A stretch of 32,000 nt of DNA from Endozoicomonas arenosclerae (GTDB lineage: Bacteria; Pseudomonadota; Gammaproteobacteria; Pseudomonadales; Endozoicomonadaceae), in assembly GCF_001562015.1 (NCBI RefSeq), contig NZ_LASA01000143.1, forward strand, positions 15,942-47,941, in the 5' to 3' direction. A model generated the notes under the pieces. That model was given only the letters and a program-made list of their open reading frames with translations, was not told the DNA's origin and made no database searches. Below, one piece after another: positions 1 through 25,902 of this stretch (its first letter is position 1; every line of letters begins with the position of its first letter). The position numbers and the translations under genes are program-made.

Positions 1-1722
1 AAAACCATTCCCGACTCTGATCTGAAACTGATGCTGGTCAACCCTTCCAAAGGGGCAGGTAATATCCCTTCACCCGATGGGCAACCGGTTAAGACCAACA
101 AATTTGGTAAAGCCACCTTTGACCTGTCTTCCATGCCAGCAAGTCCTGGAGGCCTTTATACAAGTGGCTTCACAGTCAAAAGCCCGGGCAGTGAAAGAGG
201 CAGAGCCGATGTTTTCTATCTGGCCATGTCACCCATTCCTGTCTATCACTACAGCTTTAATACCCAGACCAGTGCCGATCTGACAACCCAGTTCAGATCC
301 CTGACCTTTGGACAATACAGTCCGATTGAAGGCAGTATGCCTGCTGTTGCTGGAACCTTTGGGGCAGGCGTTCAACTGGGTCACGGTCATCTGGTCAATA
401 GCGGCCTACCCGATATTCTCAAAGGCGACTTTACTGTCTGCGCTGACCTTCAGCCTTCCCCGGATTCATCAAACTTCACCCTGATGGGTAGACCTGATGG
501 TCTGATGATTGGCCTGATAAACGATAAGGGACAGATAGGCGTATCTGCTGGAAAACAGGCTGTCTTTTCCCATTCCATCCTCGGACAGGATGTACCCTTC
601 CACCATGTCTGCCTTTCCCGATCTGTAAACCCGGAGGGAACGCAGAGTACGGTAGCGATTGCCGTCGATGGCAAGATGGAAGTAGAGAATGGAAAGCTGG
701 ATCACCCGAATGGTGTCAACACAGATATTACCGCCATCGGTGGTTACCTTGATGATGAAGGCCATATCATTGAAGCGGAAGGTAAACTGGACAACCTGAA
801 AGTCTTCAATGAAGCCAACAGAATGGTCGATGCTTCATCGGATCTTTATGTGGTCTGGAGCTGCCCCGACAACGGCAAGTGTGCCCAGAACGAGTATCTG
901 CCGTTGGGCCAGGAAGCTGTACAAATGAGTTCACTGAGTCAGGGCGGTGACCTGTACATTGAATTCGCGGGGCTCAGAGCAGCCTCGAATAAAGGTTACA
1001 CTTTCAATGCAGAGTTTGATGTTCGTTTTAATGGACAGCCCGTTACGGCCGACGCGCAGTCACCGGGATTATTCAAGTTAACCGGTGTCAGTGCTGAAAA
1101 CCTGGGCTCACTGGAAATCAGACCCAGTAACCCCGATTCCATTTATCTGAATGACGGGGGCGACTCGATTAAATCCTATGGCTACACCGTCAAAATGGCG
1201 ACCAGTCTTGAAGGTCTGAACCATCCGGAACTGACCGTCCGATTGGATTCTGATCGTCTTGAGACCAGTGGCAAACTTCACAACGTCCTGTCTCTGCCCG
1301 GCTCACAGGTGGTGATGCATTACCATCAATCTGCGAACCCCGAGGATAAGCCAATGAGGGGTGAAGAACTCAACAGACCGATTCAACAGGATCACTTCCA
1401 TGCGGTCGAAGGGGGCAAAGTTGCTAACTACGACCCACAGCATGACATCATTGATCTCAACAAGTTGTTAAGCGGTGAACATAAGGTACCTTCCGGTGTC
1501 CAGGAACTGGCTGCCCTGCTTTGCACCCGGGAAAAAGCCGGTAGCGAAGGCCTGATTGATCAGGTACTGATTCGCCATAAGGAAAATGCTGGTGACAGTC
1601 ACTGCGATTGCCACTCCAAAGACGATCCGGCTTATACCGTCAACCTGCTGGACCCCATGCATCAGCCACTTCTGGTTGTGAACTATGACGGTCTGCAACA
1701 TGACCTCTATCCTTCTTCCTGA
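1..1722 (+). CDS. 3' part (truncated by the window edge) of a large secreted adhesin/RTX-like protein with a LamG/concanavalin-like region and a probable type I secretion C-terminal target region
   Basis: Frame 1 is open from nt 1 (KTIPDSDLKLMLV...), so the gene continues upstream. GDFTVCADLQPS..FTLMGRPDGLMIGL..HHVCLSRS..AIAVDGK resembles LamG-like jelly-roll domains. HDIIDLNKLLSGEH..VQELAALL near the C-terminus resembles the D-x-(I/L)-DL-x-x-LL signature of T1SS C-terminal target domains (from memory). A strong terminator follows. Confidence 0.6.
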   Translation, partial: KTIPDSDLKLMLVNPSKGAGNIPSPDGQPVKTNKFGKATFDLSSMPASPGGLYTSGFTVKSPGSERGRADVFYLAMSPIPVYHYSFNTQTSADLTTQFRSLTFGQYSPIEGSMPAVAGTFGAGVQLGHGHLVNSGLPDILKGDFTVCADLQPSPDSSNFTLMGRPDGLMIGLINDKGQIGVSAGKQAVFSHSILGQDVPFHHVCLSRSVNPEGTQSTVAIAVDGKMEVENGKLDHPNGVNTDITAIGGYLDDEGHIIEAEGKLDNLKVFNEANRMVDASSDLYVVWSCPDNGKCAQNEYLPLGQEAVQMSSLSQGGDLYIEFAGLRAASNKGYTFNAEFDVRFNGQPVTADAQSPGLFKLTGVSAENLGSLEIRPSNPDSIYLNDGGDSIKSYGYTVKMATSLEGLNHPELTVRLDSDRLETSGKLHNVLSLPGSQVVMHYHQSANPEDKPMRGEELNRPIQQDHFHAVEGGKVANYDPQHDIIDLNKLLSGEHKVPSGVQELAALLCTREKAGSEGLIDQVLIRHKENAGDSHCDCHSKDDPAYTVNLLDPMHQPLLVVNYDGLQHDLYPSS

Positions 1723-20675: not shown

Positions 20676-20723
20676 TCAAAACAACCCCATTCGCACATCA
20701 ATCAGGGTATTAAAATCCAGATT
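20676..20723 (-). pseudogene. Displaced remnant copy of the last 15 codons plus stop of polB
   Basis: tcaaaacaaccccattcgcacatcaatcagggtattaaaatccagatt is 43/48 identical to the true polB 3' end at 25903-25950. The reverse complement reads NLDFNTLIDVRMGLF-stop versus NLDFNTLIDEQMGLF-stop. Confidence 0.8.
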
Positions 20724-20742
20724 AAGGCTATTCGAAGATTCC

Positions 20743-21120
20743 TTAGTTGCTATAAAAAGTATCTATTTGGTCACAAAATTCAGTGGCCTTTAAACCAAGT
20801 AGTGGCTTCCATGAGGATTTATCTAGCCCCCTATAATTCATCATTCCTTCAAGCAACTCAGTAGTGATTAAAGCTTCAACTTCAGAGTCTCTATGCTCTA
20901 TAAACTCTTCAATCAGAGAAAAAAGTTCATCAATACTATCATAATTTTTGTTCAGAATATTTGAAGGAATAAGCTCTGAGAGAGTTACAATTACAATATT
21001 AAACATGAATATTCCATCTAAAGAAATCCAATCATTTGCAGTTGCAACGAGACGTTCTCTATATCCTAGATATACTTTACAAATCCTGTTAAGCATTTCC
21101 AGTTTATTTATTTCTTTCAT
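20743..21120 (-). CDS. Hypothetical small helical protein, immunity-like (125-128 aa)
   Basis: AT-rich ORF with no recognisable catalytic motif or signal peptide. Acidic helical segment ELFSLIEEFIEHRDSEVEALITTELLEGMM. ATG 21120 is preferred over GTG 21129. Context is an immunity-gene array. Confidence 0.45.
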   Translation of the reverse strand: MKEINKLEMLNRICKVYLGYRERLVATANDWISLDGIFMFNIVIVTLSELIPSNILNKNYDSIDELFSLIEEFIEHRDSEVEALITTELLEGMMNYRGLDKSSWKPLLGLKATEFCDQIDTFYSN

Positions 21121-21170
21121 TGCTAGCACTTACCTTTGTTTAAACTTCAAAGCATCTTCAAGATCTTTAA

Positions 21171-21293
21171 TTAAATTTCCAGTACTACAGAGGGTAATTT
21201 GAAGTAGGAAGCGCCTTTTTTGCTTATTTCTTTATCCCAAAAAAGCTCTGAAACACTTTTATCTAACAAAAATGCAAATATTTCATGGTAACC
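21171..21293 (-). pseudogene. Start-less fragment of a paralogue of the 22338-22805 gene
   Basis: 81 nt (21192-21272) are 78/81 identical to 22644-22724. The fragment translates to ..HEIFAFLLDKSVSELFWDKEISKKGASYFKLPSVVLEI-stop, versus SIFLLDKGVSELFWDKEISNKGASYFKLPNDCW in the intact gene. It has no start codon and a premature stop. Confidence 0.75.
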
Positions 21294-21405
21294 TCACTTA
21301 GGCTTATTACATTCTTTACAGTTTTTATATTCCTCTAACGGATTTTTGGACCTTTAGGTGCGCTTCAGAAGTAAGTTTGACGTCTGTGGTGAGAGGGAGT
21401 GAGAG

Positions 21406-21804
21406 TCATGAGAGAAAGTCCATTTTAGATAGCTTAGGTAGAATTTCTGTATCAAGCGTTGAGCGTATCTCTGTTAATGAGTCTCCCACTTCTACCATTC
21501 TGTTGTTAAGTGCAGGTTGGCTTTCCCAGAAACTCTGAGGGAGGTCCAATAATACTGAGGCTAAGTCTCCAACATAGAGGTTTCCGGAACAAAGTGGATT
21601 TTCCTCCAAAAGAGTCAAGGCAATAGGAACCAGATATTCAAGCCCGATACGCTGGCTAATCAGGAGTCTGAGATCTTCAGGAGTAAGATCTTCAAGCTTT
21701 TTTGTACTTGCTTCCCTGAGTCGATCGATCAGTCTGCTATCAAGACCTGATTTTTGCAGTCTGGTTCGAAGTTCGGTTAGTTCATAGGCTGTAGAATGAC
21801 TCAT
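21406..21804 (-). CDS. Contact-dependent-growth-inhibition-type immunity protein (CdiI-like), orphan
   Basis: LTPEDLRLLISQRIGLEYLVPIALTLLEENPLCSGNLYVGDLASVLLDLPQSFW matches the pattern (EDLR-MIGQ-x-L-x-L-P-AL-x-L-x-PL-EGD-Y-GDLL-VL...W). I recall that pattern for proteins annotated as CDI system immunity proteins; from memory, not searched. Confidence 0.6.
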   Translation of the reverse strand: MSHSTAYELTELRTRLQKSGLDSRLIDRLREASTKKLEDLTPEDLRLLISQRIGLEYLVPIALTLLEENPLCSGNLYVGDLASVLLDLPQSFWESQPALNNRMVEVGDSLTEIRSTLDTEILPKLSKMDFLS

Positions 21805-21875
21805 TGATTGATGCCTGATTAACGGAGTATTTTTCCAGAATAATGCAAATTATCAGCATTCTAGACCTTCTCAGT

Positions 21876-22307
21876 TCAAACGTGCTCTGAAAATACAATT
21901 TGTTCTATATCAATACTCTTGCCAGAAAAAACCCTATCCAATCGTTCAATGTACCATGTAACGTCGGTCCTTCGAGATTTGCCAACAACCTTTCGGCCAA
22001 TCGATAGGGTAATTGAGAATGAACTGTCAGTATGAAAAAGTACTTCGCCGCCGCTCATTGTGTCTTGCCAAGTGAATACAACACCTACTAATTCTCCACG
22101 CTTAACTTTTTCGTCTGCGAGCTCGATCAAGGCTTGATCAGTTAATTGTTCATTCTGCCAATTAAAGTCATCAACATCACCAATAGGTAAAAAACTGACT
22201 TTTCCAGAGTCGTTAAGCGTCCAGCCTGCGTCAAGAAACATCTGGATCAGTGTGGGAATAGCAAAGCTTTTGGCAAGTTGTATATCGATACTGGCTGAGA
22301 TTGACAC
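21876..22307 (-). CDS. Hypothetical small cytoplasmic protein, immunity-like (143 aa)
   Basis: ORF with a GTG start and no obvious SD. No motifs recognised. The call rests on context and size; start uncertain. Confidence 0.4.
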   Translation of the reverse strand: MSISASIDIQLAKSFAIPTLIQMFLDAGWTLNDSGKVSFLPIGDVDDFNWQNEQLTDQALIELADEKVKRGELVGVVFTWQDTMSGGEVLFHTDSSFSITLSIGRKVVGKSRRTDVTWYIERLDRVFSGKSIDIEQIVFSEHV

Positions 22308-22337
22308 TTAATGTAACCTGTCAACGACTTAAGGGTA

Positions 22338-22805
22338 TTAAGATACTTTCAAAATATCACCAATTGGTCTGAATAAAATGGCTTCTCTATTTATTGGATT
22401 GGATGGAATCAATATAGGGCAGTCATCATCAATAGCAAGAAAATCATCCCAGAACTCTAAAAAAACACTCCAGCTTGATTCTAGAATAATGCATTTACTA
22501 ATACAGAATCTGACAGTTTCTTTATCGCTCCATTTAAACTTGGATTTCAGAATATTAGATACTGGTATATTGTCGCTTTTATTATAAAAATCTAGCCAAC
22601 TTCCAATAAGATCACTCTCGCCAGAAACAAGCCAGCAATCATTGGGTAATTTGAAGTAGGAAGCACCTTTGTTGCTTATTTCTTTATCCCAAAAAAGCTC
22701 TGAAACACCTTTATCTAACAAAAAGATGCTATTTCTGGGAATAGAGTCAAAATACTCTCTGTAACGAGTGCGCTCAACAGGTAGAGACTCAGCTTTATTT
22801 GTCAT
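22338..22805 (-). CDS. Hypothetical small protein, immunity-like (155 aa); parent of the 21171-21293 fragment
   Basis: ATG 22805 (MTNKAESLP...) is preferred over TTG 22814. A second partial copy in the island indicates a multi-copy cassette family. Confidence 0.5.
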   Translation of the reverse strand: MTNKAESLPVERTRYREYFDSIPRNSIFLLDKGVSELFWDKEISNKGASYFKLPNDCWLVSGESDLIGSWLDFYNKSDNIPVSNILKSKFKWSDKETVRFCISKCIILESSWSVFLEFWDDFLAIDDDCPILIPSNPINREAILFRPIGDILKVS

Positions 22806-22994
22806 CTTGTACAACCCGAGAGATTATCCATAGATTGGTATATAACCTATGCTTTTTCGTCTGGCAACTACCATACCTACAACTAAACAGCGGGATACTG
22901 ATTAACTCTTATATTTTCTCAGGAGAGACTTTTGGTAGCAGGCTTCTGGTTGAAGTGAGTTGGCAAGCACTTATCTGTCGAGAAAAGCCAAACT

Positions 22995-23016
22995 CTGGCT
23001 TCTAGTGGTAAGCCAG
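22995..23016 (-). terminator. Weak candidate terminator hairpin after the second immunity paralogue
   Basis: Stem ctggctt / aagccag (22995-23001 / 23010-23016). On the minus strand it is followed by agtttggcttttct. The stem is short and the T-run interrupted. Confidence 0.3.
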
Positions 23017-23088
23017 CAGAACCATTAGCCACCATCGATGACTTGCCTGCTCAAAGAGGGAGAGCAGACTATAGAGCTATCAATAAGC

Positions 23089-23622
23089 TTATGTGCCTAA
23101 CTCATCAGGGTTTAATACCCGATACGTGCGAGCAGCTGCTTCAACAACATTACTCCAACCTTCGCAATCTATGACCTCTAACGCACTATCACTATTGCAT
23201 GATTTATAAAAGTTGAACAACACCTTAGCCATATGAATCATGGCTTCAGCTTCAGCACTATTTTTAAAGACAGAGCCAATATAACTGTGCGCATTTTCAA
23301 GATAGTCCATATCTTCTATAAGAATGTCAGTGGCGCAATCGTACCAATCACCAACGTCAGGGGGCATGCTGTCGTGAGTCTCCATATAAGGCTGCCATTT
23401 TTTTTGAAACATCTTTTGATAATCAAAATCCCTTAAATCATCCAAACTATGTAATGTATTGTCCCGCATTTGCGGATATATAACTTCTTCACAGCTTTTC
23501 ATTATGGGCTCCAATTGAAACGGGACACTCATACAATTTGATACTATTTCCATTCTCTGAAAATGAGTGTCCTTCATGCCTCCGAACCGGTTTAAGCGAT
23601 TAGTTGAAAGTGGAGCCCTCAT
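23089..23622 (-). CDS. Immunity-like protein, paralogue 2
   Basis: Shares LDDLRDFDYQ / LDDLRNKDYQ, IG-x-x-FKN-x-x-EAE and EGWSNVVEAAARTYR / PEWKNVLDAADKAYR with the upstream gene. The start is either ATG 23622 (ATGA overlap) or ATG 23502. The latter is preceded by ggag at 6 nt and gives 137 aa, close to the paralogue length. Confidence 0.6.
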   Translation of the reverse strand: MRAPLSTNRLNRFGGMKDTHFQRMEIVSNCMSVPFQLEPIMKSCEEVIYPQMRDNTLHSLDDLRDFDYQKMFQKKWQPYMETHDSMPPDVGDWYDCATDILIEDMDYLENAHSYIGSVFKNSAEAEAMIHMAKVLFNFYKSCNSDSALEVIDCEGWSNVVEAAARTYRVLNPDELGT

Positions 23623-23999
23623 GGCATCTGTTTCTCTGGTTTGGTCATAGAACGATATGCTTTATCAGCAGCATCTAGAACATTCTTCCATTCAGGCAAG
23701 TTAATATATTCTTCGTCCGTGAGCTCTGTGCCGTATTTTTTAAAGATTGTATCGAGTTCTAGACATAGTATCCCAACGAGTTCAGCTTCTATTTCGTTTT
23801 TCAAAAACCACCCTATACAGCTATTGGGGTCTGTTGCTAGCTGAGTATCATCAAAGAGGAAGTGAATGGAGTTATCCAGTTCATCAAACTGGACATCGCT
23901 AGTAAAATTCTTATTTACCCATACCGCAATCTGATAATCTTTATTCCTTAGATCATCGAGATAGCCAATCAGTTCTTCATACATTTCCGGATATTTCAT
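23619..23999 (-). CDS. Immunity-like protein, paralogue 1 (126 aa), immediately downstream of the toxin gene
   Basis: MKYPEMYEELIGYLDDLRNKDYQ... Acidic, no signal peptide, 16 nt after the toxin stop. ATG 23999 is preferred over the 24056 start, which would overlap the toxin ORF by 41 nt. Confidence 0.6.
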   Translation of the reverse strand: MKYPEMYEELIGYLDDLRNKDYQIAVWVNKNFTSDVQFDELDNSIHFLFDDTQLATDPNSCIGWFLKNEIEAELVGILCLELDTIFKKYGTELTDEEYINLPEWKNVLDAADKAYRSMTKPEKQMP

Positions 24000-24015
24000 T
24001 TCTGATGCTCTTTTT

Positions 24016-24774
24016 CTAGTTTGGTGAGTCCCATTTCTTCCAAGAAATATATTCACTTAAAGGAATGTGTGCATGTTCTCCATTATTTTTGATAGAGCCA
24101 ACAATTGGCAACCCATCTCTCCCTAGAACTTTACCACTACTGCGAACAATAACATGATCAACCTGTTGAGATGGTAGACTATGGTTAGGATTCCCTTTAT
24201 CAATTCTAATTCCATTTCCTTTATTTTCAGGATCGAACCAACGCTTACCGATGCCTTTTCGAATATCTGTGGGTTCTATCCATCTTTCGGGGATTTTGTG
24301 AATTACTTCATCTGGTATTTTCCATTCCGAATAATACACCGGAACCCCCCGGTGCGCCTCAGGACTCCAAAGGATAACCAGTTCACCTTCTGAGGCTGGG
24401 AGCTCAAGGGTTGTCGGGCCTGAAGTCTCACTAACCGGGGTTGTATAAATAACAACCTGACGGGCATCAAGGTTATCAGGATAACCCTCAATACCTATTT
24501 CAGGGGGCTTTTCCGGGGTCCATGTCAGGCCAATGCCATTGGGCAGCATGACTGTGTTTGAATTGAGTGTCAGGACATCAATGGGTTGGCCCTGAGCATT
24601 ATGGTATACAGGCAGGCCTGAGTGATCTTTCCCCTGGTAGTTGAGCTTTTCACGATGAAACTTCAGATCAGCGTCATCCGATAAAGAAGCTGGCCAGAAT
24701 AAGGCTGATAGGGGAATCGCTCTGGCAGTGACTTGTGGAGCAGGTTTAAGCCATTGTCCCAGATTTTCAAACAT
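24016..24774 (-). CDS. Polymorphic-toxin / S-type-pyocin-like C-terminal module (252 aa)
   Basis: GLTWTPEKPPEIGIEGYP..ARQVVIYTTPVSE..GELVILWSPEAHRGVPVYYSE resembles the S-type pyocin domain pattern (TP...P...D-x-I-x-FP..SG-x-P-x-Y; from memory). The basic, His-rich C-terminal ~90 aa (GKRWFDPENKGNGIRIDKGNPNH..VDHVIV..GEHAHIPL) has no TM segments. Immunity-like genes follow. Confidence 0.55.
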   Translation of the reverse strand: MFENLGQWLKPAPQVTARAIPLSALFWPASLSDDADLKFHREKLNYQGKDHSGLPVYHNAQGQPIDVLTLNSNTVMLPNGIGLTWTPEKPPEIGIEGYPDNLDARQVVIYTTPVSETSGPTTLELPASEGELVILWSPEAHRGVPVYYSEWKIPDEVIHKIPERWIEPTDIRKGIGKRWFDPENKGNGIRIDKGNPNHSLPSQQVDHVIVRSSGKVLGRDGLPIVGSIKNNGEHAHIPLSEYISWKKWDSPN

Positions 24775-24780
24775 CAGAGC

Positions 24781-25077
24781 CTAGTCTGCTCCGGTCATGA
24801 TCTGAGTACTGTCAGCAATGGCTGAAAGAGGGCCAGCCAGCAATACTCCGATATCGGAGAGCTGGTAGAAAGGGCAGGTTTCGGAAGTGCAGTGATCAGT
24901 CACTAAAATTTGATCAGAGAGCAAATCGGCGCCTGAATCTTCGTCGTCTCCCCGGTTTTCTTCAAAACTGAAAGCAGAAAGGTCTGGGAGAATTTGCTTC
25001 TGGTAGTGAGTTTGGTATCGGTGCATGAGGCTTACACTTCTTGTTGCCTGACCAAGAAGGTTGTTTTTTTGAGCCAC
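24781..25077 (-). CDS. N-terminal piece of the toxin reading frame (98 codons), separated from the 252-aa ORF by one in-frame TAG
   Basis: Same frame as 24016-24774 (25077 and 24774 are both divisible by 3). The junction reads ..IMTGAD-TAG-AL-MFENLGQW. GTG start lies 4 nt after the DUF2283 stop. The acidic linker and ..LLAGPLSAIADSTQIMTGAD tail are reminiscent of pre-toxin TG regions (tentative). Confidence 0.45.
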   Translation of the reverse strand: MAQKNNLLGQATRSVSLMHRYQTHYQKQILPDLSAFSFEENRGDDEDSGADLLSDQILVTDHCTSETCPFYQLSDIGVLLAGPLSAIADSTQIMTGAD

Positions 25078-25081
25078 CGGA

Positions 25082-25297
25082 TTAGGTTATATCCATTCCT
25101 ATTATTGAGCCTTCCTCATCAAAATCCAGATAAATATCTGGCCCTTTGTAATCATTGATCAGGTCGGCCAAACGCAGCTGTTTTCTTACTAAACCAGATA
25201 TAGCAACCTGAGGATGTTTAGGAAGATACAAATATGCAACTTCTGGGTCGCTTGAACTGACTTTAAGCTTAATTTTTTGTCTTGGCATTACAATCAC
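25082..25297 (-). CDS. DUF2283-like small protein (68-71 aa)
   Basis: PEVAYLYLPKHP....IYLDFDEEGSIIGMDI matches the DUF2283 pattern (D-x-LY-x-x-L ... -x-D-x-D-x-x-G-x-x-x-G-x-E-I). GTG 25297 overlaps the upstream stop (GTGA); alternative ATG at 25288. Confidence 0.6.
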   Translation of the reverse strand: MIVMPRQKIKLKVSSSDPEVAYLYLPKHPQVAISGLVRKQLRLADLINDYKGPDIYLDFDEEGSIIGMDIT

Positions 25298-25779
25298 TTT
25301 GCTATCAGTACTGTCTTAAGTTTCGCTGAACCATTTTTACTAATTTGATAAACGGCCAACCCATCAAGCCACTGCTCCAGCAAGAACAGAAGCTGGAAAA
25401 CCATGCCGGTTCGAGGTGTGTCGCTCAAATTCTGGAAAAATGCAGTTCTTTGTTCAAAAGCTTCTTGCTCTTCCATCCATCGCCAGTAGAGTGGCAGAAC
25501 AATGGCCAGGCTATCCGCCTCTGAGGCATGCAAGGTAATGAATTGCTCATACGCATGAATAGCCTGATCCGTTTGGCCACGGTCTTCCAGAAGAAAGATG
25601 TGACTTAATGGGTCAACCCAGTCAATGCTCTTTTCTTTGGCGAGCCGAAGCATGGATTCACGACTGTCGGCTTGTTCATAAGAAAGCCAGGGAACAGGTG
25701 CAGCCTGGAGTGCAGCGGTCATCAGCAGAAGTGTCGTACAAAGAAAAAGTCGACCAATAGGGAGAAACACTGCGCTCAT
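25294..25779 (-). CDS. Secreted/periplasmic helical protein of unknown function (161 aa)
   Basis: Signal peptide MSAVFLPIGRLFLCTTLLLMTAALQA-AP. The rest is predicted helical and Trp/Glu-rich. First gene after polB. Confidence 0.55.
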   Translation of the reverse strand: MSAVFLPIGRLFLCTTLLLMTAALQAAPVPWLSYEQADSRESMLRLAKEKSIDWVDPLSHIFLLEDRGQTDQAIHAYEQFITLHASEADSLAIVLPLYWRWMEEQEAFEQRTAFFQNLSDTPRTGMVFQLLFLLEQWLDGLAVYQISKNGSAKLKTVLIAK

Positions 25780-25902
25780 AATTACAGCTTTTTTTGTAAC
25801 GTGACTGATCAGTTAATGAGCGCTTAAAGGTAGATCAGCTGTGAGGGACTGCAAATTTTTGCGTATTAAAATAGACACTCGTAATGAATGGTTATAAACA
25901 GC

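Follow-up and report, generated by a model that had tools for sequence, protein, structure and literature searches.

A probable decayed orphan toxin/immunity cassette in an islet at the end of polB in Endozoicomonas arenosclerae

Two adjacent reading frames of the gammaproteobacterium Endozoicomonas arenosclerae raise the question of whether they are separate genes or the halves of one toxin gene and, if the latter, what kind of toxin it was and whether it could still be made and delivered. They lie on the minus strand at positions 24016-25077 of the stretch of DNA analysed here, 32,000 nucleotides of contig NZ_LASA01000143.1 (positions 15,942 to 47,941; hereafter the window). A first-pass annotation, made from the sequence alone, had joined them into a compact pyocin-like toxin of about 353 residues broken by a single in-frame TAG and had proposed that it could be a very small released bacteriocin, an orphan toxin tip or a recently inactivated gene. 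Our analysis indicates that the region is very probably a decayed orphan toxin/immunity cassette of a polymorphic toxin system, now a pseudogene in E. arenosclerae, so that the last two proposals apply together and the first does not.

One reading frame and its stop codon

The two open reading frames (ORFs), one of 98 codons with a GTG start (25077-24781) and one of 252 codons with an ATG start (24774-24016), form one frame, and the sole break between them is a TAG codon at 24783-24781 in the context GAC TAG GCT CTG ATG. A hypothetical protein of E. arenosclerae matches the 252-residue product at 100% identity. A second assembly of the species, GCA_001562005.1 (locus L004), has the TAG as well; it aligns with window positions 22532-27420 and differs from the window by 26 substitutions, all of them inside polB (26107-27357). 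Since the same codon recurs in two assemblies that differ by 26 nucleotides elsewhere, the stop is real and a sequencing error is unlikely.

Relatives with an uninterrupted frame indicate what this codon used to be. P0002, encoded at locus L001 in an Endozoicomonas metagenome-assembled genome (MAG), is unbroken across the site and reads GAT TGG GCT there; L009, a 326-bp contig from another assembly, likewise has TGG at the stop codon position; and in the metagenomic array L003 the aligned residue is a Trp, within EWQQM. In the comparison with P0002 the ratio of nonsynonymous to synonymous substitution rates (dN/dS) is 0.13 upstream of the stop (56 codons), 0.24 downstream of it (125 codons) and 0.19 overall, and these low values on either side argue that both sides evolved as coding sequence in the same frame. 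On this comparative evidence the TAG is a derived nonsense mutation, TGG to TAG, of a conserved Trp codon in what was formerly one gene, and the low ratios on both sides suggest that inactivation was recent relative to the split from P0002. The first-pass claim of one toxin frame with a single nonsense codon is thus borne out by the ORF frames, the unbroken relatives and dN/dS, and its option of an inactivated gene applies.

A truncated polymorphic toxin and its probable immunity genes

Read in the direction of transcription, the cassette and the two genes that follow it comprise the following features.

25015-25077, minus strand: leader of the upstream ORF, without a homologue, with its GTG at 25077
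24784-25014, minus strand: constant pre-toxin remnant, with the acidic motif GDDEDSGADLL, CTSETC (CxxxxC) and GVLLAGPLSAIADS; dN/dS 0.13
24781-24783, minus strand: in-frame TAG; TGG in L001 and L009, Trp in L003, TAG in both E. arenosclerae assemblies
24325-24774, minus strand: middle domain, about 150 residues, beta-rich, ending in VPVYYS[EDQS]
24019-24324, minus strand: C-terminal toxin domain, about 102 residues; stop codon at 24016-24018
23619-23999, minus strand: probable cognate immunity gene of the DUF7945/SCO4402 family, 126 residues; Pfam 7e-21, NCBIfam 9e-40
23089-23502, minus strand: second DUF7945 paralogue, 137 residues; Pfam 9e-9, NCBIfam 4e-16

The beginning of the gene is missing. 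Homology to P0002 at L001 starts at 25014 in protein comparison (tblastn) and at about 24955 in the DNA alignment, and the opening 20-40 codons lack a homologue. This GTG start has, as the first-pass annotation stated, no Shine-Dalgarno sequence, and it lies 4 nucleotides past the stop of a preceding DUF2283 gene; the leader is probably junction sequence that happens to be read in frame and not an authentic N-terminus. From there on, the remnant aligns with P0002 from about residue 187-211, and its motifs recur in the third cassette of L003, in the paralogue P0173 and in an ORF of the Endozoicomonas locus L002. P0002 itself extends more than 210 residues farther upstream, to the open 5' end of its contig, and overlaps P0174, the source of the true N-terminus, which is laid out as a Sec-type signal peptide (MLSRSRAFFVFCLALFMGPMALANA), a helical region and a Gln-rich stretch. 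No Pfam domain was found anywhere in P0174 or P0002. As judged from these alignments, the window copy is the 3' third of a protein of about 800-850 residues, with only the last ~310 codons left. Its acidic N-terminal region is real, a DEDWGD-like motif being typical of the family, and, as the first-pass annotation stated, it has neither a delivery domain nor a signal peptide. Its small size, in contrast, reflects 5' truncation and not the compact design that had been proposed, as full-length relatives begin with a Sec signal peptide and are longer by several hundred residues. What is left, a tip with a stretch of constant region and no N-terminal trafficking region, corresponds to the orphan toxin tip.

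Two details of the MAG that encodes P0174 may be recorded here. The gene (L005, 10001-11061) starts about 420 bp downstream of a ccmA-I cytochrome c maturation operon, and the end of the L005 contig lies in a Gln-rich repeat common to at least two paralogues (P0002 and P0173).

Members of the family share an order of acidic DEDWGD-like motifs, a CxxxxC pair, G(V/I)LLAG(P/S)LSAI, the conserved Trp, LGQWLKP, ALFWPASLSDD and then the beta-rich middle domain, which closes with the VPVYYS[EDQS] boundary motif. The middle domain is common to the window, P0002/P0060, P0003, P0004 and L003, and past VPVYYS the sequences diverge fully: the window and P0004 have one tip, P0003 another, P0060 a tip with a weak Tox-REase-3 match, and the first cassette of L003 a fourth. 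A constant region followed by a variable tip is the design of polymorphic toxins (PMC4436062), and the exchange of tips after VPVYYS therefore points to that design here. Scans for further family members yielded only two loci, both in one MAG, among genomes and none among metagenomes.

The nature of the middle domain is less clear than its position. The first-pass annotation had called it S-type-pyocin-like, and there is indeed a match of PF06958 (Pyocin_S) to residues 74-145 with an E value of 0.0056; its score of 17.6 bits is under the gathering score of 22.5 and it covers the C-terminal half of the model. A close paralogue gives a similarly weak 17.8 bits. P0003 (72% identical) and P0004 have no PF06958 match, and hhalign against a bona fide Pyocin_S/inner-membrane-translocation domain, from a Chimaeribacter PAAR-Pyocin_S-Cytotoxic effector, returned a probability of 0.56%. 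A middle-domain profile found no match among PDB sequences, and the AlphaFold model, with a predicted local distance difference test score (pLDDT) of 34-76, is too poor for fold comparison. Inner-membrane translocation domains sit directly upstream of the tip in nuclease bacteriocins and type VI secretion effectors (PMC9040868); the middle domain may be related to them, and its position fits. For the pyocin likeness there is thus a sub-threshold match, and against it the lack of a match in P0003, in P0004 and in the profile alignment. The pre-toxin TG-like tail that had also been proposed is not borne out: PT-TG (PF14449) has no Pfam match at E<=1 in the 98-residue ORF or in P0002.

The tip presents a firmer picture. 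A phmmer search of 1.84 billion representatives returned 524 cluster representatives at E<=1e-3, nearly all covering residues ~150-252 of the 252-residue product and lying at the extreme C-terminus of the subject. Its carriers include CdiA proteins (with two-partner secretion (TPS) domain, hemagglutinin repeats and DUF637), Rhs and PAAR proteins, proteins with WXG100/type VII secretion signals, and PT-HINT, PT-TG and PT-VENN proteins. This distribution identifies the tip, by homology, as a genuine polymorphic-toxin domain of a widespread, uncharacterised family. No Pfam or NCBIfam model lies over it in any of 122 members and no PDB entry matches it by single sequence or profile, in keeping with the unassigned fold of the C-terminal part in the earlier description. 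The AlphaFold model (pLDDT 94.7, predicted template modelling score 0.85) has two beta-hairpins followed by short helices, and Foldseek found nothing in the PDB better than E = 0.47. Near-invariant polar residues, in the numbering of the 252-residue ORF, are K173, R178, D181, R190, D192, Q203, D206, H207 and H236. The Asp-His pair, the further His and the nuclease tips found elsewhere in the family make a nuclease-type activity the likeliest one for this tip, at about even odds. A likeness to the colicin E3 rRNase seen by eye (KRW..D..G..I...D...QH...G..LG..D) was discarded, as hhalign gave 0.09% and Foldseek against the PDB, ColE3 included, gave nothing.

The gene at 23619-23999 begins 17 nucleotides past the toxin stop. 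A DUF7945 gene lies directly downstream of the tip in all five loci checked: the window, L002 (Endozoicomonas MAG), L006 (PAAR protein on a Psychrobacter plasmid), L007 (Nocardioides) and L008 (Rhs gene of Neisseria dentiae). This adjacency supports a cognate toxin-immunity pair, and from it the downstream DUF7945 protein probably neutralises the tip. The second window copy, 29% identical to the first, has an internal ATG start in an ORF that is open from 23622, and it is called as 137 residues in L004. A literature search on DUF7945, SCO4402 and PF25656 found no paper.

The Psychrobacter contig (L006) is a small plasmid-like Rep3/Mob_Pre replicon on which the PAAR protein with the tip and the DUF7945 gene adjoin a YafQ/ParE-type toxin gene; such a replicon would make the toxin-immunity pair mobile. 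In the window, the best sigma-70-like match of the islet (24082-24111, minus strand; TTGCCA, 18-nucleotide spacer, AATAAT, 10 of 12 positions) falls within the toxin ORF at its 3' end, and the immunity ATG follows about 80 nucleotides downstream.

Competing explanations and known systems

We propose that the cassette originated from an Endozoicomonas protein family with a Sec signal peptide, a constant region running to VPVYYS and an exchangeable tip that would act in the target cytoplasm, most likely as a nuclease. The copy in the window lacks the trafficking region, the authentic start codon and a promoter of its own, and the change of the conserved Trp codon to TAG adds a second layer of inactivation. 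As it stands it should be unable to yield a delivered toxin, and we infer that it is no longer expressed. The intact genes around it would be immunity genes (two of DUF7945, one of DUF2283 and four others), so that the whole islet may work mainly as an immunity island carrying toxin relics.

Several observations weigh against this proposal. No full-length parent gene lies beside the cassette, the upstream side holding only a 161-residue ORF, the DUF2283 gene and polB, and the first protein search found no other E. arenosclerae protein with the constant region; a role as a tip awaiting recombination therefore has no visible partner. The 252-codon ORF is intact and its ATG comes two codons past the TAG, so some expression is possible. 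The nuclease assignment lacks direct support: the Pyocin_S match is below threshold, and neither sequence nor fold ties the tip to a known nuclease. Finally, both Endozoicomonas loci with this tip carry a stop in the linker, TAG in the window and TGA in L002. At L002 (7374-10508) a 750-residue ORF carrying DUF637 stops at a TGA (9624-9626), and the frame past it runs on into P0004, the toxin with the window's tip; this ORF is CdiA-like in its DUF637 and yet has no TPS domain, nor is there a cdiB gene nearby. The TGA lies a few residues upstream of the position equivalent to the window TAG, and the paralogue P0173 is open there. The two stops differ in codon and position; we treat them as coincidence or parallel inactivation, and two independent knock-outs are a mild coincidence. 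L002 also holds, at 11980-12557, a second copy of the pre-toxin region with a different tip.

The alternative that survives best, though we consider it improbable, is that the 252-codon ORF (24774-24016) is a functional stand-alone gene whose product, a free entry domain plus toxin, is loaded on or released by other machinery. The ORF is intact and opens with an ATG, both assemblies annotate it, the immunity gene has been kept, dN/dS downstream of the stop is 0.24, and gene callers start P0003 and P0004 near the same position. Yet the Met in question is internal in unbroken relatives (WALMFENL) and so is no evidence of a start; the sole Shine-Dalgarno-like GGAG is 14 nucleotides upstream and reads GGAA in the TGG relative; the part before the stop likewise has the dN/dS of a coding sequence (0.13); the apparent starts of P0003 (L003) and P0004 (L002) are caused by the stop of the preceding gene or an in-frame stop, family sequence continuing upstream of both; and the product has no export signal.

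A little less credible still is a joint reading of the tip and the stops, in which the tip and DUF7945 form a widespread pair outside the Pfam toxin families, with an unsolved fold and possibly a new activity, and the linker stops are deliberate silencing or a splitting of the toxin from its carrier.

The proposal of a compact, released, pyocin-like bacteriocin of about 353 residues, recently inactivated, draws on the weak Pyocin_S match upstream of the tip and on immunity genes that lie downstream as in pyocin loci. We regard it as very unlikely: by homology the N-terminal part has been lost and is not simply small, a receptor-binding or TonB/Tol-box region is absent, and the Pyocin_S match is below threshold and is reproduced neither in P0003 and P0004 nor by hhalign. 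The full-length relatives possess a Sec signal peptide, a feature that S-type pyocins and colicins do not have. Moreover, orphan modules have been reported absent from colicin loci (PMC4436062).

More doubtful again is a programmed recoding or read-through site that would limit the output of full-length toxin, for which the TGA of L002, a few residues from the equivalent position and ahead of the same tip, could be cited. The stop is not conserved, however (TGG in L001 and L009, Trp in L003, and P0173 open at the position of the L002 TGA); the two stops differ in codon and in position; no tRNA gene was found in the window when a suppressor tRNA was sought; and a read-through product would still be missing both a trafficking domain and an authentic start. 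Hardly credible, finally, is an artefact of sequencing or assembly: we found no point in its favour, and the same TAG stands in two assemblies with 26 differences between their polB genes.

The decayed cassette that we favour has close parallels. It is well established that Cdi, Rhs and Maf loci can contain orphan modules devoid of trafficking regions and start codons. Like the orphan C-terminal toxin/immunity modules of CdiA, Rhs and MafB (PMC4436062), the cassette has a tip and an immunity gene with no trafficking region or start codon, keeps a stretch of constant region upstream of the tip, has further cassettes and additional immunity genes arrayed with it, and shares its tip with toxins of other delivery classes. 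Unlike those modules, it has no full-length parent gene beside it, none having been detected in the species, and its frame also carries a nonsense codon. Its constant region is not that of CdiA (VENN), Rhs (PxxxxDPxGL) or MafB (DUF1020), and represents an unannotated Endozoicomonas family with a VPVYYS boundary. In architecture this family is reminiscent of Neisseria MafB: taken together, its members P0174 and P0002 combine a Sec signal peptide with an N-terminal constant region restricted to the genus, with exchangeable C-terminal toxins and with orphan arrays. The likeness is one of architecture only, as the family has no DUF1020 (no Pfam match in P0174, P0002 or P0173), no sequence similarity to MafB, and no mafA-like partner that we could see.

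As in S-type pyocins and nuclease colicins (PMC9040868), a conserved domain stands right before the cytotoxic tip and an immunity gene follows. In contrast to them, the cassette has no receptor-binding/TonB-box region and the relatives bear a signal peptide, and the tip is not an HNH DNase, an E3 rRNase, a D/E5 tRNase or a pore-former.

For annotation, these results mean that two "hypothetical protein" genes are very probably the halves of one dead toxin gene and that the neighbouring genes would be immunity genes, not independent functions. The cassette itself is an ordinary relic of the known orphan-module kind, and what modest interest it has comes mostly from the uncharacterised tip and from the DUF7945 gene beside it, a pairing that makes an immunity function probable for this family. 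The analysis further defines an Endozoicomonas-specific, signal-peptide-bearing family of polymorphic toxins with a VPVYYS switch point and, at the 3' end of polB, a small and probably inserted immunity islet. Together with the tip and its DUF7945 partner, these provide useful leads for the study of competition among sponge and coral symbionts and overturn no current ideas.

The islet at polB

The cassette lies in a 5.2-kb block (20724-25902) with a GC content of 33-44% against about 50% in the flanks. The block is bracketed by a 48-nucleotide direct repeat, 90% identical (20676-20723 and 25903-25950), that corresponds to the last 15 codons of polB, and it holds every toxin and immunity gene. 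It looks, from these boundaries, like an insertion at the polB 3' end. No recombinase or integrase gene and no full-length toxin gene was found in it. Its remaining features, from polB onwards, are these.

25903-25950, minus strand: authentic polB 3' end, near boundary of the islet (NLDFNTLIDEQMGLF, then stop)
25294-25779, minus strand: chimeric 161-residue ORF, with a signal-peptide-like N-terminus and helical; the final 23 codons (25365-25297) form the tail of a deleted tip
25082-25297, minus strand: DUF2283 gene (Pfam 3.8e-5), sharing 81% identity with its counterpart after an intact tip in L003
22338-22814, minus strand: DUF2947 gene (Pfam match), immunity-type, no toxin partner
21876-22307, minus strand: immunity-type gene without family assignment, no toxin partner
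21406-21804, minus strand: CdiI_3 gene (Pfam match), immunity-type, no toxin partner
20743-21129, minus strand: DUF7674 gene (Pfam match), immunity-type, no toxin partner
20676-20723, minus strand: duplicate of the last 15 polB codons, far boundary of the islet (NLDFNTLIDVRMGLF, then stop)

The toxin tail of L003, GLAVYQISKNGSAKLKTVLIEK, matches 25365-25297 at 91% in tblastn. This 23-codon tail and the DUF2283 partner, arranged as in L003, argue that an earlier cassette was deleted down to its tail. The 161-residue ORF that contains the tail has no homologue apart from itself, and none outside the species; the speculation that it might be the collapsed N-terminus of the parent toxin was set aside, since BLASTP against P0174 was not significant and no homologue was found. 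A toxin origin is demonstrable for the final 23 codons only.

L003 itself is a metagenomic contig whose positions 1-2051 hold an intact version of the array, in the order middle domain plus tip, DUF2283 gene, second cassette (P0003), a small gene and the start of a third cassette. The P0003 cassette begins in frame right after the DUF2283 stop. The tip paired with DUF2283 in L003 has no Pfam family match.

With some seven intact genes of immunity type, drawn from at least five families, and every toxin part truncated or broken, the islet resembles acquired immunity gene islands. It differs from them in its small size, the lack of a recombinase gene and its location at the polB 3' end, and its protective role is our inference.

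Elsewhere in the window, Pfam gave nothing at E<=1e-5 for two long ORFs, at 31-1722 (plus strand, 563 residues) and 9452-11797 (minus strand, 781 residues). The sites returned by promoter and terminator scans were no more numerous than in shuffled sequence. An 81-nucleotide direct repeat, 96% identical, has one copy in the DUF2947 gene (22644-22724) and the other in intergenic sequence (21192-21272), the latter therefore being a fragment of a second DUF2947 gene. The part of the islet covered by L004, about 3.4 kb, is 100% identical between the two E. arenosclerae assemblies, and this identity beside a divergent polB points either to an islet that was shared recently or to a polB that has recombined.

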